64,000 nucleotides of DNA from Vampirovibrionaceae bacterium NZW_1234. Lineage in GTDB: Bacteria; Cyanobacteriota; Vampirovibrionia; Vampirovibrionales; JAGQHJ01. Positions 956-54,899 of the stretch are shown here, in pieces; positions within the stretch are counted from its first letter, which is position 1, and every line of letters starts with the position of its first letter. The DNA lies in the NCBI GenBank assembly GCA_041697335.1, contig JBGUGD010000015.1, positions 64,001 to 128,000 of the forward strand, given 5' to 3'. The position numbers and the translations under genes were made by a program. The notes under the pieces are model-generated. The model saw nothing but the letters and a program-made list of their open reading frames with translations, had not been told where the DNA came from and did not search any database.

Positions 956-1429
956 TTAGTGGTCCTGGGGGAAAATCTCCTTCAAAAAGGGAATATTGGC
1001 ACCTGTCCGCTTTAAGCCCAATAAAAACCCAGCCAAAAGCAAGCGTTTGGGATCGCTGCTAATGACGGTTTCCGTTTTGGAGCCAGCCGTCCAGCCTGGA
1101 TAACTGACAGCATCTGCCTTCAAATCTGCGGCAAGATAAAAGGTATCCACAGAAGCCGGCCCTTCCATTGGATCGTAATAAGGGGCAATATGCACATCCA
1201 CACCCAGTTTATCTAAAACCCGGTCCATGCCATTAATAATGGGATCTTTCTGAATATCACGAACCATTGAGGCTTTCATGCGTTTTAAGGTCCAGCGATC
1301 CCACCATCCCATACCAGGAACTCCCTCTTCCCAACTCTTGCTTCGATTCAGAGAAAATCCTTGAAAACGCATTTTTGAGCTGGGAACACCCATTTCACGA
1401 ACGGGCTTAAGTCCTTGAATTCCTTGCAT
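956..1429 (-). CDS. hypothetical protein with RFG-like leader (MRFQG)
   Basis: 157-aa ORF with AAGGAG RBS upstream; no recognised domain. Confidence 0.7.
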   Translation of the reverse strand: MQGIQGLKPVREMGVPSSKMRFQGFSLNRSKSWEEGVPGMGWWDRWTLKRMKASMVRDIQKDPIINGMDRVLDKLGVDVHIAPYYDPMEGPASVDTFYLAADLKADAVSYPGWTAGSKTETVISSDPKRLLLAGFLLGLKRTGANIPFLKEIFPQDH

Positions 1430-1669
1430 CCTGAAATCTCCTTTTAAATGTCCGATATTTCCCTGAATATCCCTTTCACCAGCCGCAGCGCGACGAGCAT
1501 TGGGCCAGTATAAAGGGTTTTACTAACGGATTCAACAAAATACCCCGAGACACCATGCACAAATAATCCTTAACTCTCTGCCTGGCGCCAAACTCTCAGC
1601 GGCATACTACGCCATAATGACCGGAGCGACAAGGCAATCTCTGCCACATACCAAGTGCAAGGATCAGCT

Positions 1670-1700
1670 CAAAAAATGAAGCAGACCCAAAGGGTCTGCT
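1670..1700 (-). terminator. terminator after the 68-aa gene
   Basis: AGCAGACCC/GGGTCTGCT stem followed by a T-run on the minus strand. Confidence 0.6.
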
Positions 1701-1744
1701 GCGATTCTACTTCCACTCAAACTGTTAGAATCAAAAAAAGAAAA

Positions 1745-1951
1745 CTATAATCCCAGACCGACTTTACGAGACGGGGCCGGGGTCACATCTTCGATAGTTT
1801 CGAAGACTTTTTTGAACAAATCGCACACTTGGTCTGCGTTCATATCAAACTTTTGGTTTTCACCTTCTTTGACGGTAGCACTTTTAATATACGCCACCAC
1901 AATCTCCTTGGCAGCATTCAACTTGGCTTCGCGGCTAATTCGATCTTCCAT
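1745..1951 (-). CDS. small hypothetical protein (helical; AKEIVVAYI resembles the Ros/MucR N-terminal helix)
   Basis: 68 aa, GAGAGGA RBS, downstream terminator. Confidence 0.7.
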   Translation of the reverse strand: MEDRISREAKLNAAKEIVVAYIKSATVKEGENQKFDMNADQVCDLFKKVFETIEDVTPAPSRKVGLGL

Positions 1952-2156
1952 CGCGGGTGAAGTCCTCTCTCAAACATCATGATTGATTAGGCCCCTATTG
2001 TATCACTTTCTTTCGAGAAGCCCAAGATCCAAATACCGCCCTTTTGCCTGTAAAATCCAAACCCAACTGCAACCTGAAACCCACGCCTCTTGGCCTTCTA
2101 ATTGTGTTACCCTAAAGTGATTATCAATATAGGCTTGTCTCTGAAAATTCCTACGC

Positions 2157-3122
2157 ATGATGCAGTATCGACCCTTTGGACAAACCGGCTTAAGTGTTTC
2201 CACTTTGGGACTAACCCTTGCCCCAACACCCTTCAGCCTGCTCTCGGGAACCTCCGCCCAATCTTCCTTACAGAGTATAGACATTGAGCCTAATTTAAGC
2301 CCAGAGCCCTTGTGGCGAGCCCTCATTGAAGGAGTCACTCTAGTCTCAGTATCACGTCAGAGTCCTGAAAGTGAACGTCTATTGGGGCAGGTTCTTCGAA
2401 AACATCAACGAGACGTAGTGGTGGTTAGCCAAAGCGCTTTACTGGACAGTGCTATGACCACTGAAGAGCTTCGAAAAACGCTTAAAAATTCTTTGGAGCT
2501 TTCTCGCAGAACTATGGACCGAGAAACGATTGAAGTCTGGGAGCTGCCACTACTCACAGTCCCTTTACTTCAGCAAGAGTGTATTGCTGACTTCCTGTAC
2601 TATGCGCGCCATCAGGAATGGATCCGCTTTTTTGCCATTCAGCCTGTTGATGAGAAGGCTCTGGAATTCGGTTTGCAGCAACCCCATTGGGACGTTATCA
2701 GCACACACTGGGCATGGTTTGGCCCCCAAGCTGAGGAATGGGTAGAGCTAGCAACACGGCGCCCGGTAGCTGTCACTCAAGCGTTATACTCATTGGATGA
2801 GCTTCTATCATCAAGCGCTTCTGCCTCAAGTAGGCTACAAAACCTGGCAAAGCGACTAAGTCGCTCCCAAGCTTTGTGGCAAACGAAGACTCTCAGCACA
2901 TCTGAATCGACCATAATTTTTACGCTAGCGCACCCACTCATTCAGGCGGGCTGGTTTGCCCCATACCAAGTCATTCCCTGGTTTACGCGCCATAAATTTC
3001 TGGATTTACCCCAATGGTCTCAAGCCCAGTGGCTTGAAGCACTTAAGGCATTAGAGCAAAACCAACCGGATCAGTTACAGGCAGTGTCCTCTTTGTTACA
3101 CTACCAGGAAACCGTGTCCTGA
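2157..3122 (+). CDS. aldo/keto reductase-like protein (degenerate)
   Basis: MQYRPFGQTGLSVSTLGL, SERLLG and SLELSRRTM match the AKR pattern; catalytic residues not evident. Confidence 0.65.
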   Translation: MMQYRPFGQTGLSVSTLGLTLAPTPFSLLSGTSAQSSLQSIDIEPNLSPEPLWRALIEGVTLVSVSRQSPESERLLGQVLRKHQRDVVVVSQSALLDSAMTTEELRKTLKNSLELSRRTMDRETIEVWELPLLTVPLLQQECIADFLYYARHQEWIRFFAIQPVDEKALEFGLQQPHWDVISTHWAWFGPQAEEWVELATRRPVAVTQALYSLDELLSSSASASSRLQNLAKRLSRSQALWQTKTLSTSESTIIFTLAHPLIQAGWFAPYQVIPWFTRHKFLDLPQWSQAQWLEALKALEQNQPDQLQAVSSLLHYQETVS

Positions 3123-3200
3123 ATATTCTTAGCAACAAGATCCCTTGAGCCGTTTTATACCCGTATTGTCCCCCTCGATACAAAAGGAATTGCCTTTTTC

Positions 3201-4586
3201 ATGAAAATTCATTCCCCAATGGCGATGTCACCGCACTCAACCTATCGCAACCAATTCAAGGGTATCATCACTCCACAGCAGATAACCATGGCCTCAATCC
3301 GGTTTGAAGGGGAAAAACAACGTCATAACGAAGCATCGGGTCAATCTGATGGAAAAGGGCTCTTCGGCACCCTATGGCACTGGACGCGCTCGGCCTTATC
3401 AGGTGTTTTCTCGCTTCTGACAGCTCCTTTTCGCTGGCTGGGAAAACTTTTTAATTGGGGGAATAAGACTAAAACAGATCATTCAAGCGAATCCAAGGAT
3501 CCTACAGAAGTTGGGAACATCCTACGTCGGGGTCGAACCAAGCGAAACAATGGAAGCCAGGGAAAAACAGCCGCAGATCGCCCTGACTCTCCTGCAAGTC
3601 TCAATCACCCCACTAGCACGTTCGCAGAGCCTCAAGACGATAGTACAAGTACGACCACAACCGTACCCAAAAAGAAATTCCGCCCATCTCATACTGAGGC
3701 CCCTTCAGTAAAGATCAAACCCCACAGTATAAAGTCAGACTCTTCAACCACACTTATTCATACCGGATTGGCTCTTAGCCCTCATCAAACGGTTACCATT
3801 AATGATAAAATGGTCCATTTTTCATTACCAGAGCTCGAAAAGGTTTTTAATATCCTTGCCTTCGAGGATAACAATGATTTCACCCCGACAGAAGCTCATC
3901 AAGCCGCAGTCCTTACTCTGAAACTCCTGGAAATTGTCAGCCAGGGGCAGCAAACCAAACGTTTCCGCTCTGGCGAACAGGTCCTCAATACCGGCCTGAC
4001 CTTTGAAACTCTGAAAACCCAATTGGGCTCGCTGGCAACTGTTTCAGCAGAGAATATCCCCCGTCAAAGACGGTTTATGCACTGGCTGGTCAAGGATGTC
4101 ATCCGCCCCAACCAGGAAACTCTGGATGATCTTGCACAGACACTGGACTTGCAAAGCCAACAGCTTAATGCCCCTAAAGATAAACGGGCAGATGCCACAA
4201 TCTGTGTTCAAGGACCCTCCGAAAGTCGTCAAATTTTGTTCTTCAAGGCCCCACATCTGGCTAAGGTTTTCCAGACAGTTGCTGGTGTCCGTAAAGACTC
4301 TGCCCTGTTTAAGACATCTTTCACCCAGGACCAGATCCATCAGGCCGTTGCAACCACGTTAAAATTCTTACAGCAGACCAATGGAAAGCTCCTAGAACGT
4401 TCTCTAGCAAACTTGTTTGAGGTAGATCCGATTTCAGAGGATCAGCTTCTTAAACCGCTGGGCTTTCGTTCGGAGAGCTTGTTCCAGATGCTGACCAATC
4501 TTAAACGGGATCCCAGCTCTGCCGAGTTTAATCCAGATGCCGCCCGCTGGTTTCTCCAATCCATGCTGGATTTAACCAGCTCGTAA
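3201..4586 (+). CDS. hypothetical protein with RFG-like leader and an internal duplicated domain
   Basis: 461 aa, AAGGA RBS, IRFEG leader, two copies of KVF...FT...HQA..TLK.L. Confidence 0.75.
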   Translation: MKIHSPMAMSPHSTYRNQFKGIITPQQITMASIRFEGEKQRHNEASGQSDGKGLFGTLWHWTRSALSGVFSLLTAPFRWLGKLFNWGNKTKTDHSSESKDPTEVGNILRRGRTKRNNGSQGKTAADRPDSPASLNHPTSTFAEPQDDSTSTTTTVPKKKFRPSHTEAPSVKIKPHSIKSDSSTTLIHTGLALSPHQTVTINDKMVHFSLPELEKVFNILAFEDNNDFTPTEAHQAAVLTLKLLEIVSQGQQTKRFRSGEQVLNTGLTFETLKTQLGSLATVSAENIPRQRRFMHWLVKDVIRPNQETLDDLAQTLDLQSQQLNAPKDKRADATICVQGPSESRQILFFKAPHLAKVFQTVAGVRKDSALFKTSFTQDQIHQAVATTLKFLQQTNGKLLERSLANLFEVDPISEDQLLKPLGFRSESLFQMLTNLKRDPSSAEFNPDAARWFLQSMLDLTSS

Positions 4587-4661
4587 ACACCATCGCACTA
4601 AAGGCCAACGCCCTCTTGCAAGCAAGAAGGCGCTGATACTAGTTTGAATTTTACGAATGAC

Positions 4662-5699
4662 TTAGCGGAATTGAACCGGACCACGGCGTTCACCGGTCAT
4701 ATGAATCGTGTCCACAAACCGAATCATCCCGGATTTGTAGGCCATAACGATACTGTGTGTGCGAATCCCAGTTCCGAAGTATCGCACCCCAGCCAGAGTG
4801 TCACCCGTAGTAATACCTGTTGCGGCAAAAACGATTTCATCTCCGGGCACCAAGTCCTCAGTGGTATAAACACGCTCTTCACTGGGATCCAAGCCCATCC
4901 GCTCACCGCGCTCACGCTCTTCAACACTACGCCATTTAAGCTGAGCCTGGATTTCACCACCTAGACACTTGATGGCGGCAGCGGCCAAAACCCCTTCCGG
5001 AGCACCACCAATTCCCATGACAGCGTGGATACCTGATCCGCTGAGGGCAGCCGTAATAGCCGGCATCACATCACCATCGGTAATAAGCTTAATGCGGGCC
5101 CCGCATTCACGAACCTCTCGAATCAATTCTTCGTGTCGAGGGCGATCCAGGATAACCACGGTGATATCTTCAATGTTCCGCTCAAGACTCATCGCGATAA
5201 TGCTCAAGTTGTATTTCACCGGCGCATTGATATCCACCTTGCCTTTAGCCGAGGGCCCCACAATGAGCTTACGCATGTATGTGTCCGGGGCGTGAAACAA
5301 GCCTCCTTTTGCAGACAGGGCCAAAGTTGCTATAGCGTTTGGCAACCCGTTGGCCACCAGATTGGTACCCTCAACGGGATCAACGGCAATGTCCATCTCA
5401 GGCATTTCAGCAGAGCCTCGGCCGACTTTCTCGCCAATGTAAAGCATCGGGGCTTCATCCCGCTCGCCTTCGCCAATGACGATGGTGCCATTCATCGGGA
5501 TTTTGCCCAAGTGCTCACGCATTGACTCGGTCGCGGCATTATCCACAGCATGACGATCACCCATCCCCATGTGTCTGGCAGCCTCAATGGCCGCGGCCTC
5601 CACAACCCCGAGAATCTCCCGGGATAAAAAACGTTCGGCTGAAACACCGTCTGGCATCATTGTTGGCATTGGCAAATCCCGCTCTAATAATTCAATCAT
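4662..5699 (-). CDS. glpX: class II fructose-1,6-bisphosphatase (GlpX; FBP/SBPase-like)
   Basis: [44 protein letters not shown]; start chosen from the GAGGGG RBS. Confidence 0.95.
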
Positions 5700-5768
5700 A
5701 CACATATACCCCTCTATTTTAAGTGACATCCCCACTCTACGGCGTCAAATATTTTTTGCAATGATTAG

Positions 5769-5814
5769 AAACAAAAACACCCAACCTGACGATACGTACA
5801 AAGGTTGGGTGTTT
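5769..5814 (-). terminator. terminator hairpin upstream of glpX
   Basis: 13-bp stem 5775-5787/5802-5814 with TTTTTGTTT on the minus strand. Confidence 0.7.
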
Positions 5815-5957
5815 GATTGGTCCACACACACAACCTGTTTATACCGCAACCTCGTCTGGGACCGGAGGACCAGGAGCGGTTCACCTGTTTCTATAAGAAA
5901 CAAGTGCAATTCGGATTCCATTATCTTCTATTATGTCGGTTTGTGTGGGTCTAAAGT

Positions 5958-6905: not shown

Positions 6906-6986
6906 CGGGGGACTCCTAACACTCAATCAATTCACTACGAGGAAAACATCATTTAAGAGAGACTGTTGAAAAGAGATAGCTTGTAT

Positions 6987-8294: not shown

Positions 8295-8330
8295 CCTTTA
8301 AACCAACTTCAGGGCATATTTGAGACTATC

Positions 8331-40093: not shown

Positions 40094-40909
40094 TTACGCC
40101 ATCAGATCAATCTCATATTCCTTTTGGAGCATCTTGGCAACGACCTTAAGAGAGCCGGGAAAATACTGTTGAAAGTTATCGTAGTTATACGTCGAGGATT
40201 TACCTCGCACCAGAATATCAACACACTCGGCAAAAGTCTCCTGTCGGGCATGTTGAAAGTCTCCATCCGGATCAGGCTCAAGATAGTAATAAAAAAAGTT
40301 TTTCGTGTGCGGATTCAACCAGGCCTGTTTCAGATGAGACGGGATCTGATCATAGTCACTCTGCCAGGCTGATTTAAATTCAGGGGATTCCGATATTCCA
40401 CGATTCAAATAGCGATCAATCTCAGCTTGAGACTTGGGAATACTAAGGCCCTGTTTCCTATCCCCATTGGCAACTCGAGCCCCAATGAGGTAGGCAACAA
40501 CATGCCCAAATTCGTGAACCACTGCATTTTCCCACACACGACTTAGGTTCCATTGTTGAGTCACACTATCTTTGATCTTTTCAGCAATCGTAATGATTTT
40601 CCGAAACGGGCCCCGATCATGATGGCCCCCCGTATAATCATTGTCTTCGGAAAACCAGCTTTCTCCCCCTTGGCGAATGTGATCCCGCACCTGAAGTTTA
40701 TATCCGTCTTGCAAAACATCGTTCACAATAGGCCGAGGCACTTGCCTCAATACAAAGGAGCGAATCGTATCCACAAAGCCATCTGAGGCACCATCGGCTT
40801 TAACGAGATGATCAACTGCCGCTACAGGCAAGGACACAGTCGACGCTTGGCCAAACCGCTTCTGTGGTTTGGCAACCCAATGCAAACACCTCGATGATAC
40901 CTCTAACAA
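40094..40909 (-). CDS. anthrax lethal factor/Pro-Pro endopeptidase-like zinc metalloprotease
   Basis: VVHEFGH, IS.S.EF..., ETFAE, YFP; KRFGQ leader. Confidence 0.75.
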   Translation of the reverse strand: MLEVSSRCLHWVAKPQKRFGQASTVSLPVAAVDHLVKADGASDGFVDTIRSFVLRQVPRPIVNDVLQDGYKLQVRDHIRQGGESWFSEDNDYTGGHHDRGPFRKIITIAEKIKDSVTQQWNLSRVWENAVVHEFGHVVAYLIGARVANGDRKQGLSIPKSQAEIDRYLNRGISESPEFKSAWQSDYDQIPSHLKQAWLNPHTKNFFYYYLEPDPDGDFQHARQETFAECVDILVRGKSSTYNYDNFQQYFPGSLKVVAKMLQKEYEIDLMA

Positions 40910-41059: not shown

Positions 41060-43702
41060 CTAGGAGGCTTGCTTTTGGCCCTGCGCTGATGGTGTGACAG
41101 GAGCTAGCAGGGTGTAGTTTAAAATAGGCTCAATCCGATCTGTCATGACAACCAAGGCTTTTCCTACAGCTTGGCTGTCTTGAACCGCTTTGGTGATAAG
41201 AGCGTTGGCATCAGGCTGATTTGGCGCAACCTGGGCCAGATCCAACACTTGGAAGCGGTTCGCCATAATCGGTGGCAGATGCTTCAAGTCGTCTTCATTT
41301 TCCTTGGGTACAAAGACCACTTTGACAGCTCCATTACCGGCATTCATAGCCCCTCGAAGCTTGTGCTTCAATCCACCAATGGCAAGAACCCGCCCGTGCG
41401 TACTTATCGTCCCGGTCATCGCAACATCGTGGCGGATAGGCCTATTGGTGAGTGTACTCAAGGCAACAGTTGTAATGGCCGCACCAGCACTGTCTCCATC
41501 CACAGGACCGCCACGCTCGGTGGTCACAGTAAATGTCGTCCGCTTGCCCTGTGGAAGCGTCACACCCAACTCATCGGCGTGATCGAGAATCCACGTGAAT
41601 GCATTGTTAACAGAATCAGAGGTCATATCTTTCAAATTTTTGTTCAGTGGCGTCATCACCAATTCACCCGGGGCATTTGGGTCCGCCAAGGGTTGATGTC
41701 GCTTGGTACCCAAGAAACTCTCAACTTTCCCTGCCACATCGCCCATCACCACCAAGGCGTTGACGCGCCCTACGGTATCCGGCAAGACATGCCCCTTGAG
41801 CAACCGAACCGAGGTATTGGGCGGCTCTAATAAGTGCTCTAAATCAGCCGGTTCAATCTGGGGCTTGGATGGCGTACCCAATTGACGATTTAAAATAGTC
41901 ACTTCCGCCAGATCCTTAATTTTTTTCTGCAAGTCTCTTACACCGGCCTCAAAGGTATAATCAGCAATTAACCGGCGCACGGTTTTTTCTGGCAGCTGGA
42001 AGTCTTTATCCGTCAACCCCATGCTGGCCTGGGTTTTAGGAACGATAAATTTCTCGGCAATCTTTACTTTTTCGTCTTCATCATAGGCATCCAATTGAAT
42101 CATTTCCATCCGATCTCGCAAGGCTTCCGGAATGCGCTCCAGATAATTGGCCGTGACAAGAATAATTGACTTACTCAAATCCAAGGGAATGTCATCCCCT
42201 ACAAAGTGATCTTTAAAATGCTTGTTCTGCTTGGGGTCCAGAACCTCCAGCAAGGCAGCTGTGGGATCCCCATGCAGATTTCCTTGTGACATTTTATCGA
42301 CTTCGTCCAGCACGATAATGGGATTCTGGGTTCCCGCTTCCACGAATGCCTTGGCAATCCGGCCCGCCAGAGCACCAATGTAAGTTGATCGGTGCCCACG
42401 GATTTCCGCTTCTTCATGGACGCCGCCCAGGGCAACATGCGCTAATTTCCGCCCAGTGGCTTTCGCCACTGATTGAGCCAAGCTGGTTTTCCCAACACCG
42501 GGAGGACCCACCAAACACATGATCTTCCCTTCCAATGGAGGCAGGCCTTTGTCTTGCAACTCTTTGAGAACCGCAATATGTTGGACGATTTTACGCTTCG
42601 GCTTTTGCAAGCCCCAGTGATCCTGATCCAGAATGGTTTGCGTTTTACGGGCATCCAACGTTGTTTTGGATTCAACCCAAGGATAATCTTCAAGAATAAA
42701 GCTCAAGCGTTCCAGATACTTCTGGGCATCGGGTGATGAAATTCCCATGCCTCCTTGACTGGCCTTTTTAAATTTACTAAGCATGCGGCTAATGGCTCGG
42801 TATTGCTGATCGCTCATAATACCTTTGCCTCCTTGATAATGCTTGTCCAACAGAGCTTTAAACTCTTCTGGTGTTTCAGCCCGTTTGTCAGGATCATGAG
42901 TAAGCGGTAACGGTGATTGGGCATCTTTAATAATGTTGTTAAAAATCGCTGAAGCCTGAATGGTTTGATTTGAGGCATCTTTGTCGACCAAACCATTCCT
43001 GAAAAACTCTCCCAAATTCAAAAGCGAGCGATCTTCAGGTTTTGAATGTTTCCGGAAGAACCGGGCCAAGCCCTTAATCAGTTCATCACTGACATTGACA
43101 TTATCGCCCAGCTCTTTCATTTTACGCACCGGTTTGTCTTTTGGAAAGTTTAGTGTTTTGAGTGCCTCCAGCCCCTTTTCCAGCGCATACTGAAGTTGCT
43201 CTGCTGATTTACCGGCCCGCACCGAAGGGGGTAAGACCGCATCCGCACATTGTCTAAAAATCAGCCCAACGGGTTGCAACTCGGATGGTGCCGCATCCAT
43301 GAGCTTGGGAGAATGAAGAGCCGTCTTGGCAAACATCATCATGGTGTACATCAGGTGACGAGGCTCGGGTTTATCAACATAGCCTAAATAGGCATCATCA
43401 CGAGCTTGCAGCAGAATAGGCAATAGTTCTTCCATATCCGTTTTCAGGGATACTCTTACCAGCAGCAGATCCTTTAAAAAAGGGTCTATTGTATCTTTTT
43501 TCTCTTTTGGCCCCGAATCTTCGCCAAACCGAAGCTTATGGCCCAATTGCGCCTGCCATGAAGCCAAAGGCATCGTTGTTAGCATGCTTGACGATTGTGT
43601 TAAAACTGGACTGGAGACAGTTGTCGTTTGATGTCTAGAACGAACTGTTTGTGCTGACGGTTTAAAACGCACGCCAGACCAACCAACCTGTATGGGGTTC
43701 AT
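41060..43702 (-). CDS. Lon-like AAA+ protease with atypical N-terminus
   Basis: GPPGVGKTS, EIRGHRSTYIGA, LDEVDK, ALLEVLDP, DGDSAG (Ser), GGLKHK (Lys). Confidence 0.92.
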   Translation of the reverse strand: MNPIQVGWSGVRFKPSAQTVRSRHQTTTVSSPVLTQSSSMLTTMPLASWQAQLGHKLRFGEDSGPKEKKDTIDPFLKDLLLVRVSLKTDMEELLPILLQARDDAYLGYVDKPEPRHLMYTMMMFAKTALHSPKLMDAAPSELQPVGLIFRQCADAVLPPSVRAGKSAEQLQYALEKGLEALKTLNFPKDKPVRKMKELGDNVNVSDELIKGLARFFRKHSKPEDRSLLNLGEFFRNGLVDKDASNQTIQASAIFNNIIKDAQSPLPLTHDPDKRAETPEEFKALLDKHYQGGKGIMSDQQYRAISRMLSKFKKASQGGMGISSPDAQKYLERLSFILEDYPWVESKTTLDARKTQTILDQDHWGLQKPKRKIVQHIAVLKELQDKGLPPLEGKIMCLVGPPGVGKTSLAQSVAKATGRKLAHVALGGVHEEAEIRGHRSTYIGALAGRIAKAFVEAGTQNPIIVLDEVDKMSQGNLHGDPTAALLEVLDPKQNKHFKDHFVGDDIPLDLSKSIILVTANYLERIPEALRDRMEMIQLDAYDEDEKVKIAEKFIVPKTQASMGLTDKDFQLPEKTVRRLIADYTFEAGVRDLQKKIKDLAEVTILNRQLGTPSKPQIEPADLEHLLEPPNTSVRLLKGHVLPDTVGRVNALVVMGDVAGKVESFLGTKRHQPLADPNAPGELVMTPLNKNLKDMTSDSVNNAFTWILDHADELGVTLPQGKRTTFTVTTERGGPVDGDSAGAAITTVALSTLTNRPIRHDVAMTGTISTHGRVLAIGGLKHKLRGAMNAGNGAVKVVFVPKENEDDLKHLPPIMANRFQVLDLAQVAPNQPDANALITKAVQDSQAVGKALVVMTDRIEPILNYTLLAPVTPSAQGQKQAS

Positions 43703-43926: not shown

Positions 43927-46317
43927 TTAACCGGATATGCCCCGATCTCGTTTTAAAAGCGAAAACAGCGTTTTAAAGCGAACATCTCGTTTCATCTCAT
44001 CCAATGTCATGGGCAAACGTCTTCGCCAATTACGGCGGTGAGGTATCTCATCCGGATGAGACTTTGGGACATCATCGGTATGCTCGATTGTGTTTGGAAT
44101 ATTGATTTGCTCTCGAACCCCCATCACATCCTCCAGCTGAGCCCCATAAACCAGACTTCGGGCCCCGGACAGATATCGGGTCATCGCATTTACAAACGCA
44201 TCATAAGCCGGTTTGGCTTTTTTAGCGTTGACATTGGTCAACTCAGTCGCAAGTTCCTGGCGAATTTTGTCCACCGTAACCTCGGGAGAAAGCAGGCCAC
44301 GATCATACAGGGCCTGAAGATCACCAGCCAAGTAGCGTTGTTCAGCACGCATTGATTCATCAATCGCCGGGGAGTTTTCTCCCAGGGATTTTAGCGTTTG
44401 CCAATGATAGCCTAATACCAACCCTGCCAGGGTCGAAACATCATGATTGCTGGCGACAGCAATGGCTAAATCCCGATACGCTTCAGGGTCAATAGGCGGT
44501 TCCTGCGGCTTTTGATCCCAATGCCGTTGAAAGCGGGTCACATCGTAGCCCAGAATACGCCACGCCTTTAATTTTTCTTTAAACCCGGGCGGAGCCGTCC
44601 CCAGATCTTCACCAATGACGACACACTTGTTCCGATGACTCTCCAATGCAATAATGCCCAGCAAGTCATCCGCATTGTAATGAACATAAAGGCCATTATA
44701 TGAGGTTGTGTTGGGAGGAACGATAAATAAGCGCTGGAGCTTAAAAGCGTGGTCTTCTCTGAGAATCCCGGCATAGCGCATGGCCGTTCGGATACTTTCA
44801 ACGAATGGAGCGTAACCTGCTTCTTCAAGTCGTTTCGGGTGGGGAACCGGGAATCCCCAGTTTTGACCCAATGGGGCCAAACCATCAGGCGGGCACCCAA
44901 TAGAGGCCTCTCTCATAAAGACCGGCCAGCGCCATGTATCAAACCCACCCCGATTGGCTCCAACTGGGCGATCCATATAAATCCGCATCGGTAGGACCGA
45001 GCTGAACTCCTTTAGTTGAGTCTCGGTAACCCATTGAAGAAACGCATAAAAACGAACCCGCTCAGGGTGCTGGGCTTTAAATTCCTGGACGTGAGGGCTG
45101 TCTGGACTTTGCAGTGTCTCAGGCCACTGTTGCCAGGGCTTTCCCTGATGGGCTTCCTGGATAGCCTGAAACGTTGCAAACTGAGTCAACAAAGCGCCTT
45201 TCTCCTGGAGATATGCCTCGAAGGCCGGATTCGGTTTTTGGGCCTGGTGTTGAAACAAGGCATTTAAAATCGTCATCTTCGCCTTGGCAATCTGGGGATA
45301 TTCTACCCAGTAAGCATTCTTACGCGCTTGGGCAAGGGCTTGACGGATTTCGGAGGATTTCAACAATTGCTGAGCCGCCTTGGTTTTTTGCCAGGCCTGA
45401 TAATTCGGGACACGGGTTACATCTACTGTCAGGGGATTAAAGAACGCATTGCTGATGGCGTCATAAGGTGACGCCGTCTGAGGGTATTGGAGATTTGGTG
45501 TTGCAATCGGATTAATCCCAACAAATGCAGCTCCAAAGGACTTCACCCATTCTGCCAACCGTTTCCCTGTCGTCAAATCACCGGCACCCATGTCATGCCG
45601 ATGTTTACGAGGATTCTCTTTCAGCGCATACAACTGAACCGTGGGCCCCCATATCTTGCCCATGTCTTTGGGTAAATACGCTTTGTCCGGCGTCACAATC
45701 AGATGCGTCGAAGCCTTATCAACGGTCAGTTGATGATAGCCCCACTCTGGCTTGCTTACCGGCAACATGGCCCGATAACGGCGGTAAATCTTCCCATCCA
45801 AATTTTTGCTGGTCATCGGTTTAAGCTCAGCAGGAGTTAGGCTGCCGGATACGGTTTTCCCAGACTCAAACTGGAGCTGCCAGGAGACGGACTGAGAAGC
45901 GGCCTCCTCGGGTAGTGTGATTTCCAGAGGGATACCGGTGGCCACATGAGATTCAGGACGTACCAAAACCGGGGGCAGCGGCTTCTTCCATGCGGCCCGG
46001 GTCATGTCATCTACCAGAGCCAAGACCTTATCGGCCTGCTGTAGTTGCTCTATTGGGTATCCCATAACTTGCAGCACTGACTGAATCTGGCCGTTACTCG
46101 GACGCTTTCCTTCACTTCCCGGGGCATAGCTGACCAACTCAATTCCGTTCGCCTTGGCTAAGTCATCCAAAGCCAGATCCAAGGTGGGTGATGCCGAACG
46201 GAAACGGACGGAGTCCGTCCCATAAAGAGGCCGTAAAGAATCTGAACGGGGGGCTTTTGTTGCTGAGCTGACGAATGAACCAACTCGAACGGGGAAAAAC
46301 CCAAGAGAGGGGATCAT
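43927..46317 (-). CDS. malQ: 4-alpha-glucanotransferase (amylomaltase, GH77) with N-terminal leader
   Basis: WG..VQLYAL, GCPPD..APLGQNWG.P, LREDH, IGEDLGT, NHD, QINIP, NWRRRL. Confidence 0.92.
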   Translation of the reverse strand: MIPSLGFFPVRVGSFVSSATKAPRSDSLRPLYGTDSVRFRSASPTLDLALDDLAKANGIELVSYAPGSEGKRPSNGQIQSVLQVMGYPIEQLQQADKVLALVDDMTRAAWKKPLPPVLVRPESHVATGIPLEITLPEEAASQSVSWQLQFESGKTVSGSLTPAELKPMTSKNLDGKIYRRYRAMLPVSKPEWGYHQLTVDKASTHLIVTPDKAYLPKDMGKIWGPTVQLYALKENPRKHRHDMGAGDLTTGKRLAEWVKSFGAAFVGINPIATPNLQYPQTASPYDAISNAFFNPLTVDVTRVPNYQAWQKTKAAQQLLKSSEIRQALAQARKNAYWVEYPQIAKAKMTILNALFQHQAQKPNPAFEAYLQEKGALLTQFATFQAIQEAHQGKPWQQWPETLQSPDSPHVQEFKAQHPERVRFYAFLQWVTETQLKEFSSVLPMRIYMDRPVGANRGGFDTWRWPVFMREASIGCPPDGLAPLGQNWGFPVPHPKRLEEAGYAPFVESIRTAMRYAGILREDHAFKLQRLFIVPPNTTSYNGLYVHYNADDLLGIIALESHRNKCVVIGEDLGTAPPGFKEKLKAWRILGYDVTRFQRHWDQKPQEPPIDPEAYRDLAIAVASNHDVSTLAGLVLGYHWQTLKSLGENSPAIDESMRAEQRYLAGDLQALYDRGLLSPEVTVDKIRQELATELTNVNAKKAKPAYDAFVNAMTRYLSGARSLVYGAQLEDVMGVREQINIPNTIEHTDDVPKSHPDEIPHRRNWRRRLPMTLDEMKRDVRFKTLFSLLKRDRGISG

Positions 46318-46592
46318 AACAAGGTCTCCACAGGAAGGCTTCAAATAAATATGATTATTGTGTCATGAACATGAGATACCTCATAAAACATCCTTTTCTA
46401 CTTAACTCCTGATGTGCAAATTCACATAGCCTCTCATCGGGTGACATCGGTGTCTTGTACTTTATTCCACGCCAACAAAAACCCTGCTGCTCTTTCTCCT
46501 CGGAAGATTCCAGGTTTTACTACCTAAACAAAGGCCGGTTCTTCAGCAACCTGCGACTTTAACTTTGGCCAAGCCCCTCCAGCCTCAGCGAA

Positions 46593-48060: not shown

Positions 48061-48067
48061 AGCGCTG

Positions 48068-49366: not shown

Positions 49367-49403
49367 GACAAATGCCCTCCTAAAGCATGGCTCGGGGAGA
49401 CTT

Positions 49404-49449
49404 ATCGAAAATATTTTCGATCATAAAAGTCCCGCCCGCTCTATGTCAA
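49404..49449 (-). promoter_or_regulatory. sigma70-type promoter with an overlapping 18-bp palindrome (putative SOS operator)
   Basis: TTGACA (49449-49444)-N18-TATGAT (49425-49420); ATCGAAAATATTTTCGAT at 49404-49421. Confidence 0.7.
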
Positions 49450-49541
49450 GCCATGGCCATCCTCGCTCCAAGACAAAGGTTGTCATTTTAACTGCCTTAA
49501 AAATTTCTGAAAATAAGGCTGCAGGAAAGTTAAAAAACTGC

Positions 49542-50321
49542 TTATTCCCCCAGCCACTGTCTTTTCAGGGCGGGTAAGGCACCTGAATCGTTGACATTGA
49601 CGAGCCAGTGGTTGAGGCGCTGCTGAAGGTCCGGGTGCTTCGGGTGGACGAGAAACACTTTCATCTCATGCGTGAATAGCGCGCGCTCATCAGAAACACA
49701 CAATGCAGGCTGATGACGATGAATCCATTGGGCTTCTTCCACATCGGTGATCATGACATCGGCTTGGCGAGCCAGCACGGATTGGATAGCCTCCTGATTT
49801 TTCGGCTTGATAATGAGCTGGGCTTGGGACAAGTGCTTGCGGGCAAAAGCTTCATTAGTGCCGCCAGCATTTTCAACCACCCGCACTGTGGGTTGATCGA
49901 CATCCGATAGCGTTTTAAAGCGAGAAACGGATTCACATCGCACCAGAAGAATTTTTCCGCCCTGAACGTAAGGCACCGTCACCAAGGCCTGTGCTTCACG
50001 TTCCGGGGTCAGGCTGATGCCTCCTACTGCAACCTGGAACTTTTGACGCTTTAAGTCACGCATCAACGACGTCCATGTGGTAGGAACCCACACGATACGA
50101 TAGCCCGCCTGATCCGAAAACGCCCGAATCAAATCGATATCGAGCCCCTGGTACTGGCGTTCTTTCCCTTCTCTCTGACTGTAAGGCGCATAATCACCTG
50201 GAGTCCCGATCCGCAGCGTTTTGGCCGAAGCTGAAACATCGTTTAATGGGACTCCGAACAATACCAGCACAATCGCTGTGAATGCCCAACTTCTCCACCA
50301 TCGAAAACCGCTCTGCCTCAT
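49542..50321 (-). CDS. family 3 solute-binding protein / cyclohexadienyl dehydratase (PheC)-like
   Basis: Signal peptide, GTPGDYAPYS, PTTW, GGIS.T.ER, NAGGTNE.F, MITD. Confidence 0.85.
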   Translation of the reverse strand: MRQSGFRWWRSWAFTAIVLVLFGVPLNDVSASAKTLRIGTPGDYAPYSQREGKERQYQGLDIDLIRAFSDQAGYRIVWVPTTWTSLMRDLKRQKFQVAVGGISLTPEREAQALVTVPYVQGGKILLVRCESVSRFKTLSDVDQPTVRVVENAGGTNEAFARKHLSQAQLIIKPKNQEAIQSVLARQADVMITDVEEAQWIHRHQPALCVSDERALFTHEMKVFLVHPKHPDLQQRLNHWLVNVNDSGALPALKRQWLGE

Positions 50322-50341
50322 CGCAAAAGTCTCTTGCGACC

Positions 50342-50692
50342 TTAATGAACCCGATTTTTGAGCTTCCAGTAAGCTTCGAGGACGGTCTGAACCACTTGGT
50401 TTGCATTCGTCATTCGGTGCAAGGTAAACACTGGCTTTGTCTCTGGAGGATAAGCCTTATTCAGCTCAAACCCAAGATAGTTGGGTTCCGTTGTTGATTG
50501 ACCGACCATATCATCAGCATAGAATACGGTTAACGTGTCCCTGTCATTACCATCGACAGCCAGCATCCTCTCTGCACGGGCCAGACCGTCTTTGACAGCC
50601 GGATTAAACTTCGCCCGTTCCTTACGGGTCATTTCATGATCATCCCAAACCAAACGGGTCCCAAACAATGGTGCTGATGACGAAATTCGCAT
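50342..50692 (-). CDS. hypothetical protein with short FG leader (MRISSSAPLFG)
   Basis: AAAGGA RBS before the ATG at 50692. Confidence 0.65.
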   Translation of the reverse strand: MRISSSAPLFGTRLVWDDHEMTRKERAKFNPAVKDGLARAERMLAVDGNDRDTLTVFYADDMVGQSTTEPNYLGFELNKAYPPETKPVFTLHRMTNANQVVQTVLEAYWKLKNRVH

Positions 50693-50924
50693 ACGCCCCA
50701 AGTCCTTTCTCTGAAACAGTAACTTGCCCCTCACGGCAATACGATGCATTAGGGCTTATTGTATTTATCCCATTCCCGGAACGCAAGTAAAAAAACACCC
50801 GATCGGCCTTCTGGAATTTATGGGTTCCTGGCAAATTCATAAATTCTGTCGATGCCCACAATACCTCAGCATACGGTACCATAAGGATAGCTCAGGATGG
50901 TCCAACCCTGGAGTGGAATCTTAA

Positions 50925-51686
50925 ATGCATTTCAGCCCTAAAAACGTGTGTTACCTAGGCATCACCATGGCTCTCATACTGTTGACCGTCATGCCGGTAG
51001 TCGCAGAAAGCCCAAAAACACGTATTCTTGCGCCGACAATCAGGGCTCCTTTACCTCCGTTACCCCCACTACCGGTAGAGACCGACCAACCATCAGCCCA
51101 ACCCCAACCTGTAACCCAGCCCACAGCATCTTCGCTCGAACCAAAGCCGTCTTCAACGTGTGTCGATTTACGTCAACCCATTCGGGAAGTCCTCCAGCAG
51201 GCAACACCCATTCATCTCACCCGTCGGACACCGCCACAACAGGAATATCATTTACGCATGAATATCGTTCAGGCAGCGCTATCGCAGGTTGGACTGAATA
51301 AGCGAGAACACCGAGAATATATCAATAGCACCTTTAGCCGGGGTCGAGATCAGGCGTGGTGCGCAGATTTTGCCTCAACCATCCTGAATTGGGTCCTGGG
51401 GCCAGGGCCACACTTCTCATTGGCCCATGACTTCTATCAATGGGCCCGAAGCGTGGGTAAGTTTACCGCCTCGCCTCAGCCAGGGGATTTGATTTTATTT
51501 AGCTATTCCGGTTGCCATATTGATCACATCGCCTTTGTCCATCGACTGCTACCCAACGGCAGCATTACCACCATTGGGGGCAACGAGGGGCCGGACAAAG
51601 GCGGTACGGGAGGTGGCGGCCAGGTTCAGGAATCCACCTACCCGGTCACGTATCCTTATATCGTTGGCTTTGTAAGTCCGCTTTAG
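50925..51686 (+). CDS. secreted CHAP-domain cysteine hydrolase
   Basis: Signal peptide, Pro-rich linker, AWCADF, PGDLILF, DHIAFV, TIGGN. Confidence 0.85.
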   Translation: MHFSPKNVCYLGITMALILLTVMPVVAESPKTRILAPTIRAPLPPLPPLPVETDQPSAQPQPVTQPTASSLEPKPSSTCVDLRQPIREVLQQATPIHLTRRTPPQQEYHLRMNIVQAALSQVGLNKREHREYINSTFSRGRDQAWCADFASTILNWVLGPGPHFSLAHDFYQWARSVGKFTASPQPGDLILFSYSGCHIDHIAFVHRLLPNGSITTIGGNEGPDKGGTGGGGQVQESTYPVTYPYIVGFVSPL

Positions 51687-52102
51687 GCAGACAGATCCAA
51701 TTTTGCAGCGGTCGTCTTTTTTGCGAGATAATCATCCCGTTCCCGATTCATCAAGTCACGGGTGGGCTTGTCCACTTCCGGTTGCAAGCGATTAATAATT
51801 TTCTGGCCCGCTTCATCCCCGTGCTGTTCAAACAACCCTTTGACCCATTCGCCAATTTTGTTGTGATTGTTTTGCAGGAAACCGGGTACAGCCTGGATGA
51901 ACACCGACTCATAATGACGATTCAAAAACCATTTTGACAACTGCGGCTCACCCGCCTTGGGATCATACGGCTCATCATCGTCCTCGTCGTCCTCATCAAC
52001 CGGTTTGGCTGGCTTGGCTTGTGCCGCAAACTTCACCTGAGACTGTGGTGCAGGCTGACGAACAGGGCCTCGAAATGCCGCATTGGAAACAGCAAACATC
52101 AT
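51683..52102 (-). CDS. hypothetical protein with leader (VKFA) and acidic tract
   Basis: GGGGAG RBS; DEDDEDDDE. Confidence 0.7.
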   Translation of the reverse strand: MMFAVSNAAFRGPVRQPAPQSQVKFAAQAKPAKPVDEDDEDDDEPYDPKAGEPQLSKWFLNRHYESVFIQAVPGFLQNNHNKIGEWVKGLFEQHGDEAGQKIINRLQPEVDKPTRDLMNRERDDYLAKKTTAAKLDLSA

Positions 52103-52309
52103 CGTAAATATACTCCCCAAAATTACTCACTCCAATTTAGGTTTCAAATTTACCACAAACAATCTCATTGACAAGCCCTTTGCCCTTCAGGGCAATTTAT
52201 AAAGCGCAATATTTTCAGGGGTAAAACGCAATTTTATACAGAGGTTAGACTTGATTGCGTCAGTGACTAACACCCATAGATCACGTAGGACACAAAGCAG
52301 GTGCGCGCG

Positions 52310-53299
52310 ATGCGAATTTGCTCTCTACCTCCCTTCAAACCGTCTTCATCTAACACAACTCGCTTCGGATGGCATAAACGGCAACCACCCCAAGGTTGGC
52401 GCTTTGAACTGTCATCGGATCACTTTGCCAACCCGGAGACATTAACCTTAAAACCCGAGGTGATTCAGCGCATTGCGGGCACCCTCATTCGAGACACCCT
52501 GGAAAAGCCCGGCTTTGCCTTTATTCCCAACCTTCATCAGTTCACAAATTCGGCTGAAGCTGCATGGCAGTTTCAAAAGACATTGCTTCACGATGTTTAT
52601 CGAATCGCCGAGAAGGCATGGGGACTAGACACTGTCGAGTACCGGCTCGGTGACGTGGTGATTGTTGATCGGGATGCCCAAGGCACAGTAGGCAATCGCG
52701 GAGGCAAGGGAATTTCATCTCTCCACTGGGATGGTGGCATCGACCAGCTGGTCTCATTTCTGTATCAAACCCGAAATCTGCGGGGCGGACTGCCAATGGT
52801 AGGCGATGTCATTCAATACCTTGTCGACAACCATCACACCGCCGGCCTGAGAACCTTGAGTGATTCCGATCCGCGTTATGTCCTCAGGGCTGAATCCCTC
52901 TTGAAAGAGCCTCATCCACGTCCCTCACAATCCAAAACACCGGGATTATTATCCCGCCTGGCCCGGTTCAAAAATCCGGTCCACCCGCTGCAACCCTACC
53001 ATTGGATCATTGATGATCCAGCATTTAGCCAATCGGCCTTTCCCATGGTCATTGTCAACAACCGACGTGAAGACGGTTTGACACACACCGGGACGGCAGT
53101 GAAAAAGCAGGACGAAAATCAACCTGCTGCTCGCGTGTTACGCCAGGTCTTTATTCAAACCGACTTGATCCCTGATCAGAAAATTATTCTGGTCGGGCCC
53201 CCGCCCAATGCACTGGAAAAAACGTTAGTGCCGGAATCCTTAAGCCATAACTTTGACGACCTTCCCGATCAGGCGACTGAACACCATCGCAAGGAATAA
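52310..53299 (+). CDS. hypothetical protein with RFG leader; possible 2OG-Fe(II)/TauD-like fold
   Basis: TTRFG; LHWDG (HxD) and VIVNNR...TH. Confidence 0.6.
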   Translation: MRICSLPPFKPSSSNTTRFGWHKRQPPQGWRFELSSDHFANPETLTLKPEVIQRIAGTLIRDTLEKPGFAFIPNLHQFTNSAEAAWQFQKTLLHDVYRIAEKAWGLDTVEYRLGDVVIVDRDAQGTVGNRGGKGISSLHWDGGIDQLVSFLYQTRNLRGGLPMVGDVIQYLVDNHHTAGLRTLSDSDPRYVLRAESLLKEPHPRPSQSKTPGLLSRLARFKNPVHPLQPYHWIIDDPAFSQSAFPMVIVNNRREDGLTHTGTAVKKQDENQPAARVLRQVFIQTDLIPDQKIILVGPPPNALEKTLVPESLSHNFDDLPDQATEHHRKE

Positions 53300-53503
53300 T
53301 TTTTTTGTTGCCTTCCTCTTGACAACGCATGTATCTGCGGTAATAATGAAGACCCTCGTTTAAACTTAGATTGCAAAGAGATTTGCCCCTCCCATGAAAT
53401 TTACCGTAATCAACGTAACTGCAATGATGATGTGCCCGATGCTCCGCCAGGAGGATCGGAACGAGTTGCGCTGTTAAAACCACGGTAACCCCAATAAAGC
53501 GAC

Positions 53504-53550
53504 AGCAAACCGCCGACCTCCCCCACTGAGGTCGGCGGTTTGCTTTTGTC
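53504..53550 (+). terminator. strong terminator closing a short orphan transcript
   Basis: 17-bp perfect stem 53504-53520/53528-53544 with T-rich tail. Confidence 0.75.
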
Positions 53551-53609
53551 CTCATCTTGTCCCTCTACACTATGTTGTCCACTGCTTTCCCAAAAAAAGG
53601 TTCAAGCCC

Positions 53610-54899
53610 ATGTCCACCCCCACTCCACAGCTAGCACCCCCAGCCCACCAGAGGCCCCGCTTTGGCGGTATCTTCGGCAAGGAAGCCATCCAGGGCCTGA
53701 TTGTGGATACCTTAGGCATCCTGGGTCCAAAACTGGTCGTTGCTCGGGGAAGCTTGAACCGCACCGAAGAATGGGTGCTCGAGGGGTTGGAAGACATTGT
53801 GTTCTACTTTACCGTGCCCGCTGTGGGGCTCTACGGCTTTTCCAAGCTTTTCCAGTCTCAACTAAAAACGCTGGGCACCAAAATTTCCTCGGTGGCCTTG
53901 GGGAAAGCCCTGCCCCCGGCGTTATTGAAAAATCGTTTTGTGTTGGGAGCCAAAACGGGAACCCTGCTGGCCACCATTGCGGTGGCCGCAGGGATGGAAT
54001 TTCTGGTGCCTCATGTGCGCAATTTCATTACTGCCAAAGCCTACAATGCCAAAAATTTTACGGCGGTGGCCAATCTGGAAGCCGCCCGCTCCACGGTCAA
54101 AGCCGGTGAGTCTGATCCTGTGGAGAAAGCCAAATCCCGGATTTTACCCGTTGCTCTCAGTGTGGCCGGTCTCGTCGGATTGGCCTTCTGCTTACCCAAA
54201 CTGGTGGCCAAAAGCAGCGCCTGGCAGAAAGCGGCCCAGACCTTTACCAAATACGTAGATTTTGGCTCCAGCAGCCCCTTTGATATGTCCAAACCCATTC
54301 TGGCCATTTTGGCACTCGTCGGACTAGGCGGCTACTTGGATGCCACCCGGGATAAACTCGAATTAAAAGAAGTCGCAACCCGTGTGGCACTTTTTACCAT
54401 TCCCTATTATTTGTTTGGGAAGGAATTGGCCGGAAACCTTCTGGGACGATTGATCCAAAACCAGCATGTCAAACTCAACGGCAAATCGGTGGCCATTAAA
54501 AGCCTTGTCCCTTTTATTAATCCCAAGCTGCCCAAATCATCGTTCCTAGATTTCAACCAACTGGTCAGCAATACCCATGTGGTTCAGACCCTGGATAAAT
54601 TAAAACTCCCCGCCAGTGTCAAATCAGCCATTGTGGGCAAACATACCTTTATTGGCTACGCCCGGTTTATTTTAAGTGCCCTGGTTGTCGGCGTTGTGGC
54701 AAATCTAGTGGCTTTTCATCAGACCAAGCAACGCCATCAGGAGGCTCAAAAAGCCAACGCCACAAAAGAAAGTCACACCAATTTTACCTTCCAACCCATT
54801 CTGGCAGATCCGTTAAAAGGCCCTCATCAACATCTCCCCTTTGTATACCCCACTCACGCCAACCAGCCTGCGTTTGCCAGAACCTCTTTCCGAATCTAA
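53610..54899 (+). CDS. multi-pass membrane protein with RFGG leader
   Basis: Several hydrophobic segments; MSTPTPQLAPPAHQRPRFGG. Confidence 0.75.
   Translation: MSTPTPQLAPPAHQRPRFGGIFGKEAIQGLIVDTLGILGPKLVVARGSLNRTEEWVLEGLEDIVFYFTVPAVGLYGFSKLFQSQLKTLGTKISSVALGKALPPALLKNRFVLGAKTGTLLATIAVAAGMEFLVPHVRNFITAKAYNAKNFTAVANLEAARSTVKAGESDPVEKAKSRILPVALSVAGLVGLAFCLPKLVAKSSAWQKAAQTFTKYVDFGSSSPFDMSKPILAILALVGLGGYLDATRDKLELKEVATRVALFTIPYYLFGKELAGNLLGRLIQNQHVKLNGKSVAIKSLVPFINPKLPKSSFLDFNQLVSNTHVVQTLDKLKLPASVKSAIVGKHTFIGYARFILSALVVGVVANLVAFHQTKQRHQEAQKANATKESHTNFTFQPILADPLKGPHQHLPFVYPTHANQPAFARTSFRI

Follow-up and report, generated by a model that had tools for sequence, protein, structure and literature searches.

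To our knowledge, every shared N-terminal tag known from bacteria (Sec, Tat, lipobox and prepilin) is tied to a known machine, and the natural substrates of bacterial M16 peptidases are poorly known. Type III secretion signals lie at the N-terminus, are disordered, contain much Ser, Thr and Pro but few acidic residues, and have no hydrophobic core. The host-targeting motifs PEXEL of Plasmodium (RxLxE/Q/D) and RxLR of oomycetes lie downstream of a Sec signal peptide, and PEXEL is a protease site as well. According to the available part of one report, early flagellar substrates carry hydrophobic residues at positions 2-5 plus an FlhB-binding gate recognition motif (e.g., 36-FLTLL-40 of FlgD), with a minimum spacing of 19 and an optimum of 24 residues, the Phe motif lying approximately 20-40 residues from the start (PMC8983047). 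For presequences cleaved by M16 peptidases, the accessible portion of another paper gives the search motif R(FNESG)/(ILFSAGQ), a length of 4-24 residues, no Trp and no net negative charge (PMC2597178). Here, we examined a window of 64,000 nucleotides (positions 64001-128000 of contig C29) from the genome of Vampirovibrionaceae bacterium NZW_1234 (G000; 3.70 Mb, 41 contigs, 94.75% complete), in which an initial annotation had flagged nine non-homologous proteins as sharing an N-terminal leader that ends in [RKL]F[G/A/E/Q/R]. We found that the core of this ending, Arg-Phe-Gly (RFG), constitutes a genuine short linear motif, one that is read in the protein and is under selection. Relatives matched with one window protein are named Vampirovibrio sp., Vampirovibrionales bacterium or Candidatus Melainabacteria bacterium. 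No paper mentioning an RFG leader motif was found in the literature, and the available part of the Vampirovibrio genome paper (PMC4451040) does not contain the terms "N-terminal", "signal peptide" or "type III".

The motif was counted in 3034 open reading frames (ORFs) of the whole genome, which were called greedily as the longest non-overlapping ORFs of at least 100 amino acids. RFG was observed 173 times in the first 60 residues versus 38.6 expected (Poisson p = 1.6e-56), and 176 of the 3034 ORFs carried an N-terminal RFG. In an unbiased genome-wide comparison of tripeptides between residues 2-60 and residues beyond 100, RFG was the top high-count tripeptide at N-termini (177 vs 39.1 expected), followed by PRF, LRF and VRF. 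Its density fell from about 1.15 per 1000 residues over positions 1-40 to 0.2-0.25 beyond position 80. The 52 ORFs of the window contained 4 RFG versus 0.66 expected (p = 0.005) and 7 RF[GASQ] versus 2.1 expected. As for the residue after RF, only G (4.5-fold), Q (2.3-fold), A (2.1-fold) and S (2.1-fold) were significantly enriched genome-wide, with p-values of 1e-7 to 9e-9 for RFA, RFS and RFQ, and D, E, K, N, T, V and I were not enriched. The ending proposed in the initial annotation was thus defined too loosely: its RFG core is present in four of the nine proteins (40094-40909, 41060-43702, 52301-53299 and 53610-54899) and RFA, RFS and RFQ are about two-fold enriched, but KFG (1.17-fold), LFG (1.2-fold), RFE (0.88-fold) and RFR (1.3-fold) show no N-terminal enrichment genome-wide, and neither does RFK (1.3-fold). 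The resulting consensus is S-[P/V/L/I]-R-F-[G>Q,A,S], with Ser enriched 4.3-fold at position -2 and P, V, L or I at position -1; directly after RFG, S, Q, N, P, T and A are commoner, while L (0.3-fold), F, V and I are rarer.

The excess is specific to the reading frame: near gene starts, RFG occurred 173 times in frame versus 51 and 80 times in the other two forward frames, the corresponding counts inside genes being 35, 37 and 57. The motif is encoded by varied codons: five for Arg, both for Phe and all four for Gly. We then considered 152 filtered carriers (selected for an RFG no further than 65 residues in, preceded by a permitted residue at -1 and by no more than one D/E in 10 residues) and an unfiltered set of 186 (RFG within 70 residues). 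Shine-Dalgarno (SD) matches of at least 4 bases accompany 39% of the longest starts but 8% of internal ATGs in this genome. Because an SD-backed start lies upstream of RFG in 106 of the 152 carriers, the motif is translated; SD-backed starts within 40 codons downstream were found in 29, which is the chance level. From the SD-backed starts, Arg is 1-62 residues away (median 17.5, interquartile range 9-28), so the leader length of 10-60 residues given initially has to be revised. Furthermore, the 152 carriers form 141 BLAST clusters, 132 of which are singletons, and therefore do not represent one paralogue family. The two objections foreseen in the initial annotation, namely that the motif might not be enriched at N-termini genome-wide and that the true starts might lie downstream of it, did not hold.

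The leaders have a distinctive composition. In the 12 residues before RFG, Asp and Glu occur at 0.1-0.6 times the usual frequency (unfiltered set) and return to about 1-fold after the motif. Pro, Ser, Thr and, to some extent, Arg are abundant in the filtered set, in agreement with the earlier description as S/P/T/R/K-rich except for Lys, which is depleted (0.79-fold); the mean net charge of the filtered leaders is +1.8. These filtered-set figures are inflated, as the filter itself selects for few acidic residues before RFG. Trp is absent from four of the eight positions preceding the motif (-8, -6, -3 and -2). A hydrophobic 12-mer was detected in 3.4% of 118 leaders, which bears out the description of a leader without a hydrophobic core. 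A hydrophobic 15-mer in the leader plus 60 residues was present in 7.2% of carriers versus 23.1% of other ORFs, and any transmembrane-like segment in 13.8% versus 31%. A Sec type I signal peptide has a hydrophobic h-region of about 10-15 residues behind a basic n-region, a Tat signal has a twin-arginine S/T-R-R-x-F-L-K ahead of an h-region, and a type IV prepilin has a G|F cleavage site before a hydrophobic helix with Glu at +5. Comparison with classical signals showed no h-region of a Sec type I signal peptide by the hydrophobic-segment scan. Likewise, the leaders do not resemble Tat signals (Arg not enriched before the motif Arg, Leu 0.3-fold right after RFG and no h-region) or type IV prepilin signals (order F-G rather than G-F, and polar residues after the motif). 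Nor do they resemble PEXEL or RxLR proteins, as the leaders have no hydrophobic core that could serve as a Sec signal. Two carriers combine the leader with a classical signal: in a 503-amino-acid protein (C10:63584, minus strand), a Tat-like signal, SRRQFLQDV, and a hydrophobic stretch come immediately after the RFG leader, and the RFG leader of the carrier at C34:197549 precedes a Cys-containing, lipoprotein-like signal. Classical signals can therefore lie downstream of the tag.

Conservation was examined in the family of the window protein at 53610. This protein found a match in 24 of 41 genomes of the order, and 19 loci could be aligned. In 15 of these 19, [RK]F[GQNS] (RFG, KFG, RFQ, RFS or RFN) is kept shortly before the conserved domain, while the leaders themselves cannot be aligned, indicating selection on the motif. 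A 14-row alignment (A1) gave the consensus PRFG, with F18 conserved in at least 90%. For the Lon-like window protein (41060-43702), the N-terminal region of the G008 orthologue contains two RFG, and KFG is present in a relative from G004. Three homologues of the 53610 family that were examined in other orders have no RFG leader, and the tagged malate dehydrogenase (MDH), which was found in G000 only among 15 genomes searched, is an extra copy; the tag has thus been added to older families. The 53610 leader is predicted to be disordered: in the AlphaFold model, residues 1-21 have a predicted local distance difference test (pLDDT) score below 50, and the remainder of the chain forms helices (mean pLDDT 72.6). 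No fold match to this protein was found in the PDB (best E 0.078), and its atlas matches were unnamed Melainabacteria clusters only. The family is known only from Melainabacteria, often in several copies per genome. A HMMER profile of the family retrieved 358 proteins at E <=0.001. Among the best 150 of these, x-F-[GQSK]-[GSA] often occurs about 17-35 residues from the start in acid-poor leaders, although the anchor pattern for the leaders failed in 101. In the 131 usable proteins of these best 150, F[GQS][GSA] was present in residues 4-80 in 37% versus 17% of internal windows and [RK]FG in 18% versus 9%, a modest contrast.

The flanks of the motif were scored with a flank-only matrix, for which 1010 internal control sites give a 95th percentile of 0.91 and a 99th percentile of 4.07. 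All nine ORFs flagged in the window are present (Table 1). Seven of them score at least 3.9, but the proteins at 3201-4586 and 40094-40909 stay below 2, the latter in spite of its canonical core.

Table 1 Flagged proteins of the window (window positions) and flagellar-type type III loci of the same genome (contig positions)
Feature	Coordinates	Strand	Leader or motif	Motif nucleotides	Flank score	Upstream of start
332-amino-acid protein	52301..53299	+	leader MRAMRICSLPPFKPSSSNTT, RFG residues 21-23	52361-52369	10.2	
429-amino-acid all-helical protein	53610..54899	+	leader MSTPTPQLAPPAHQRP, RFG residues 17-19	53658-53666		
880-amino-acid Lon-like AAA+ protease, long N-terminal extension	41060..43702	-	RFG residues 58-60; RFK residues 12-14	43523-43531 (RFG)	3.9	GGTGAGGA (ATG)
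271-amino-acid protein	40094..40909	-	RFG residues 18-20 from TTG start	40850-40858	<2	GAGGA (TTG)
4-alpha-glucanotransferase MalQ (GH77)	43927..46344	-	extra Ser/Pro-rich N-terminus, variant SVRFRS residues 47-49	46198-46206	4.0	
157-amino-acid orphan	956..1429	-	variant KMRFQG residues 21-23	1361-1369	5.5	GGAG (ATG)
145-amino-acid orphan	51683..52120	-	variant QVKFAA residues 30-32	52025-52033	7.5	
135-amino-acid orphan	50342..50749	-	variant SAPLFGT residues 28-30	50660-50668	6.9	
461-amino-acid orphan	3201..4586	+	variant SIRFEG residues 34-36	3300-3308	<2	
Flagellar-type set 1	G000 C2:99137-104324, C2:179936-185745					
Flagellar-type set 2 (more divergent-looking)	G000 C32:10110-20950, C8:66046-69954, C29:178730-179812 (~50 kb beyond window end)					

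The best flank score in the window belongs to the 52301 protein. Two paralogues in the genome and one protein of G024 begin, like it, with ...P[R/L]RFGW[HS][KR]xxPP. A wider homologue search returned only two proteins, itself and one at 55% identity, and the atlas gave a weak lead to TauD/TfdA-like dioxygenases (scores 0.86-0.89). Pfam assigned two of the nine proteins to families, one as a Lon-like AAA+ protease (AAA, Lon_lid and Lon_C) and one as a GH77 MalQ (Glyco_hydro_77 and MalQ_N), and left the other seven without a family; NCBIfam likewise gave none for the tagged 52301 and 40094 proteins. The 40094 protein contains HEFGH, a motif of the zinc-metalloprotease type HExxH. The Lon-like protein shares 31% identity with a leaderless canonical Lon paralogue, and a second, leaderless MalQ in the same genome is 39% identical to the flagged one. 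Membership of this MalQ in the tagged class is doubtful: its RFR core is of a kind not enriched genome-wide, and its orthologues in five relatives have no RFG leader. Among the orphans, the 956 protein carries the enriched RFQ core, and the 51683 protein has an acid-poor leader followed by an acidic stretch. The LFG core of the 50342 protein is not an enriched one, and the 3201 protein, with RFE, is the weakest of the nine. The latter has no BLAST paralogue in the genome at E 1e-3, and its 'APFRW' likeness to some tagged proteins, seen by eye, was dropped as unsupported by BLAST. The window's housekeeping proteins identified by Pfam (PheS, PheT, UvrA, PyrF, ribonucleotide reductase and the Pha proteins) were not flagged by the flank matrix, in line with the initial statement that they lack the leader.

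Who carries the tag was examined with Pfam for 65 of the 152 carriers, which came from 20 regions chosen mostly for carrier clustering; 38 had no family and 27 had one. The tagged enzymes comprise IDH, MDH/LDH, guanylate kinase, PRPP synthetase, a GlgC-like transferase, enoyl-CoA hydratase and an adenosine-deaminase-like protein. Proteases are represented by a 1087-amino-acid M16 peptidase, a 986-amino-acid FtsH-like protein and a ClpB-like protein, and further matches include NUDIX proteins, a methyltransferase, hydrolases, a trypsin-like protease, and TPR, HEAT, ankyrin and EF-hand proteins. Thirty tagged proteins had no meaningful match in NCBIfam. In a comparison that the initial annotation had proposed for Lon and MalQ, several tagged proteins (MDH, Gmk, Prs, Lon, FtsH, ClpB, M16, GlgC and MalQ) proved to be extra copies beside leaderless paralogues. 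Obg, a candidate for a tagged, single-copy essential gene, was rejected: all 13 orthologues found in 14 relatives begin at the canonical N-terminus of the M(Q/K)F(V/I)D type, which shows that the apparent leader of Obg comes from an ORF extended too far upstream. Carrier genes tend to be neighbours, with 20 adjacent pairs versus 7.4 +/- 2.6 in 2000 permutations, none of which reached 20, and they resemble the remainder of the genome in GC content. Overall, the carriers, orphans and repeat proteins among them, are mostly soluble, accessory or non-essential proteins without a Sec signal, numbering about 130-140, or about 4-5% of ORFs.

Some individual loci deserve mention. Tagged-gene islands lie at C25:30498-55031 (10 carriers in about 25 kb) and C8:43123-56432, and these hold giant protease paralogues, namely the 1087-amino-acid M16 protein, the 986-amino-acid FtsH-like protein (AAA domain from residue 547) and a 575-amino-acid ClpB-like protein. 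C8 also encodes two very large proteins of 1182 and 1012 amino acids with the variants SPVFGS and TPRFSG, and a 604-amino-acid EF-hand protein at C23:21666-23480 is RFG-tagged.

The taxonomic range was assessed by processing relatives in the same way and scoring them with the matrix trained on G000, a hit being an N-terminal score of at least 12. The whole of G000 gave 140 hits versus 3.3 expected; the relatives were sampled over 268-400 kb each, that is, over part of the genome. Hits numbered 7 versus 0.2 expected in G004 (same family, 268 kb), 4 versus 0.6 in G024 and 2 versus 0.2 in G008 (both sister family f3, 400 kb). No excess was seen in the 400-kb samples of G005 (family f2, genus g6; 0 vs 0.2), G098 (another order, f7; 0 vs 0.2) and G106 (another order, f5; 0 vs 0). 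The RFG motif is thus strong in its own Vampirovibrionales family (f1) and weaker in the sister family f3. Together with the 141 clusters, these data uphold the initial claim of a lineage-specific N-terminal signal on unrelated proteins apart from the housekeeping core. G098 showed a weak trace of SF.G (8 vs 2.6 expected in 400 kb), and 53610-family homologues in G098-type lineages begin with MKTN..NISFTN(A/S)G where G000 has ...RPRFGG; RFG may be a local dialect of a class-wide Phe-centred tag. An alternative N-terminal motif in genus g6 was rejected, as the tripeptides enriched in G005 stem from copies of one 148-amino-acid ORF, and the F[RK][GAS] matches in that sample look random. This ORF, transposase-like by eye (MFSRGKKSAGKQ...), occurs in at least seven identical copies within 400 kb of this single-contig relative (G005:C1:100001-500000).

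Overall, these results demonstrate that the motif is real, translated, under selection and added to older protein families. What it does for the tagged proteins, be it sorting, cutting or export, we infer from its sequence context. RFG is probably a lineage-specific address tag that closes an unstructured, Pro/Ser/Thr-rich, acid-poor and mildly basic leader, is read by a machine for Sec-independent routing and is likely to be cleaved at R-F|G. In this mechanism, a cellular machine would recognise the leader, a cut at or beside R-F|G would probably remove it, and the tagged proteins would be sent to a Sec-independent destination; cleavage and Sec-independent export would be two candidate logics that are mutually compatible. 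A candidate for the cutter is an M16 peptidase of the MPP/HPP type, because R-F-[G/S/A/Q], the leader length, the charge and the lack of Trp fit the published grammar: Arg would stand at P2 followed by allowed residues, and the leaders are short, not negatively charged and Trp-free by the figures given above. A far-reaching version, in which the Vampirovibrionales (and, in other dialects, the whole class) possess a Sec-independent routing pathway for about 140 accessory proteins with an M16-cut R-F|G presequence and a destination outside the cytoplasm, plausibly the interface with prey, appears quite unlikely as a whole.

Several observations weigh against the address-tag interpretation. About 39 of the 173 RFG matches are expected background, the one in Obg is such a background match, and in chorismate synthase, MoaA and probably also FliW the RFG belongs to a domain. 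Gene calling by longest ORF is crude, the carrier filter shapes the leader composition and the relatives are only partly sampled, as noted above. The codons at RFG are mildly skewed (TTT 78% vs 65% genome-wide, CGC 41% vs 29%), and in a few carriers the motif is followed by a segment that looks like a Sec, Tat or lipoprotein signal. The candidate machines also lack the expected pattern: FlhA occurs twice in nearly all 41 Vampirovibrionales genomes searched, including G005 with no motif excess; no concentration of carriers is visible around the second type III loci (5 in about 100 kb vs about 4 expected by a rough count); and M16 domains are present in all 41 genomes of the order, motif-bearing or not, so that M16 does not track the motif. 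Among FlhA, C32-type FlhA and M16, no gene was found to co-vary with the motif across the genomes searched.

A possible, though rather unlikely, alternative is that the RFG leader is an export signal for one of two flagellar-type type III sets, which would secrete the tagged proteins and perhaps deliver them to the surface or the interior of prey. In its overall features, the leader resembles type III signals, and its carriers avoid Sec signals. Two full flagellar-type core sets are encoded in G000 (FlhA, FlhB, FliP, FliR, FliI and FliF twice each, one extra FliQ-family gene, and rod genes), and these were the only Sec-independent exporters detected; searches of the genome (94.75% complete) recovered no VirB4, no contractile phage-type sheath and no TssC. 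Two secretins are present, and only flagellar-type type III sets with rod proteins were recognised. On the other hand, both sets are found across the whole order, even in a genus whose 400-kb sample lacks the motif, and the C32-type FlhA is common to other orders of the class. We know of no conserved tripeptide in type III signals. The gate recognition motif F-x-x-x-hydrophobic does not fit, as V (0.3-fold), M (0.2-fold) and I (0.6-fold) are depleted at F+4, where S, P, W, T and R are enriched. At least a quarter of the start-to-Arg distances (9 residues or fewer) are too short for the minimum spacing of 19 residues given in the available part of PMC8983047, although many would fit. A complex prediction for the 45-residue 53610 leader (alignment A1) with the C-terminal domains of both FlhB paralogues gave a score of 0.01 and a mark of 0.32, values that speak neither for nor against such an interaction. 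No RFG was seen at the rod-protein N-termini inspected in G000. As side observations on set 2, the gene at the FliG position has no Pfam match, the FliN-like protein has 471 amino acids, and the second FlhB (C29:178730-179812) reads NPIH by eye at the autocleavage site, where the first has the canonical NPTH; a sigma-28-like gene follows it.

It is unlikely that the leader is instead an intracellular propeptide or conditional degron, which an M16-type or other endopeptidase would cut at R-F|G to yield an activating or stability-setting N-terminus, with no export involved. The composition changes abruptly at the motif, R-F followed by only G, S, A or Q fits the Arg-at-P2 sites in the part of PMC2597178 available, and the predicted mature N-terminus of the 53610 family would fall approximately where leaderless homologues begin. 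The genome also has eight M16 domain matches on about six genes, one of which is itself tagged; against this, M16 is equally present where the motif is absent, and there is no obvious reason why about 140 unrelated accessory proteins should share one propeptide. A shared cleavage tag of the Prp/L27 type was excluded, as L27 reads MAHKKGVGS directly after the start, with no extension.

That the leader mimics a transit peptide inside a eukaryotic prey, routing effectors to mitochondria-like organelles or plastids where a host peptidase would cut at R-F|G, is very improbable, even though this idea, raised in the initial annotation, fits several facts. The motif agrees with the hydrogenosome/mitosome presequence grammar (PMC2597178, in the part available), relatives are named Vampirovibrio or Vampirovibrionales, the type species of which preys on Chlorella (PMC4451040, likewise), and some tagged functions are organelle-like, i.e., FtsH-, Lon- and ClpB-like proteases, M16, MDH, a GlgC-like enzyme and MalQ. 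However, no delivery machine was found, Pro-rich leaders would speak against the amphipathic helix of mitochondrial presequences, and the motif also occurs on membrane-associated and tiny orphan proteins. Moreover, the four public runs that contain at least 50% of the words sampled from window positions 50300-55000 are labelled as hot-springs or microbial-mat metagenomes, so nothing in the run labels supports a eukaryotic or algal host; no RNA run was among the public runs listed.

We give very little credence to a role of the motif during translation, as an mRNA or nascent-peptide element near the start codon. Its proximity to the start codon and the mild codon skew would suit such an element, but the distance from the start varies over 1-62 residues, many synonymous codons are used with a frame-specific excess, and orthologues exchange R/K and G/Q/S at the protein level. 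An artefact of chance matches, over-extended ORFs or one paralogue family is barely credible and was rejected on the enrichment, frame, start, cluster, orthologue and relative-genome controls, although by our own estimate the loose [RKL]F[GAEQR] would match about 14% of 60-residue stretches by chance and background matches such as that of Obg do occur.

Shared N-terminal tags define what a cell sends where, and a tag on 4-5% of ORFs that fits none of Sec, Tat, lipobox and prepilin occurs here in a lineage of predatory, barely culturable relatives of cyanobacteria. As an export signal, it would turn the carriers into a list of the likely predation toolkit and point to a hitherto overlooked recognition step; as a cleavage site, it would provide bacterial M16 peptidases with a large set of natural substrates. 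If the wider routing pathway were true, it would be a bacterial counterpart of presequence-based targeting. In either case, the motif is a simple and specific handle for N-terminal proteomics, reporter fusions and the annotation of orphan genes in the class.

Compared with known systems, the RFG leader shares with the signal of early flagellar substrates its N-terminal, unstructured and Sec-independent nature and a short Phe-containing motif, and two flagellar-type gates are present; it differs in having no hydrophobic residue at F+4, in a spacing that is often below 19 and in its occurrence on about 140 non-flagellar proteins. As with PEXEL and RxLR, one short N-terminal motif defines hundreds of unrelated, lineage-specific and clustered genes, but those motifs follow a Sec signal, which RFG leaders do not have, and the organisms and motif sequences are unrelated. 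The M16 presequences (mitochondrial MPP, hydrogenosomal HPP and Giardia GPP) are eukaryotic organelle import signals that use TOM/TIM-type translocases, whereas the bearer of RFG is a bacterium, and RFG leaders are Pro-rich with P/V/L/I before the Arg and Ser before that. Nevertheless, both are short N-terminal extensions without negative charge, are found on many unrelated proteins and end in an Arg-P2 motif, which is putative in the case of RFG.

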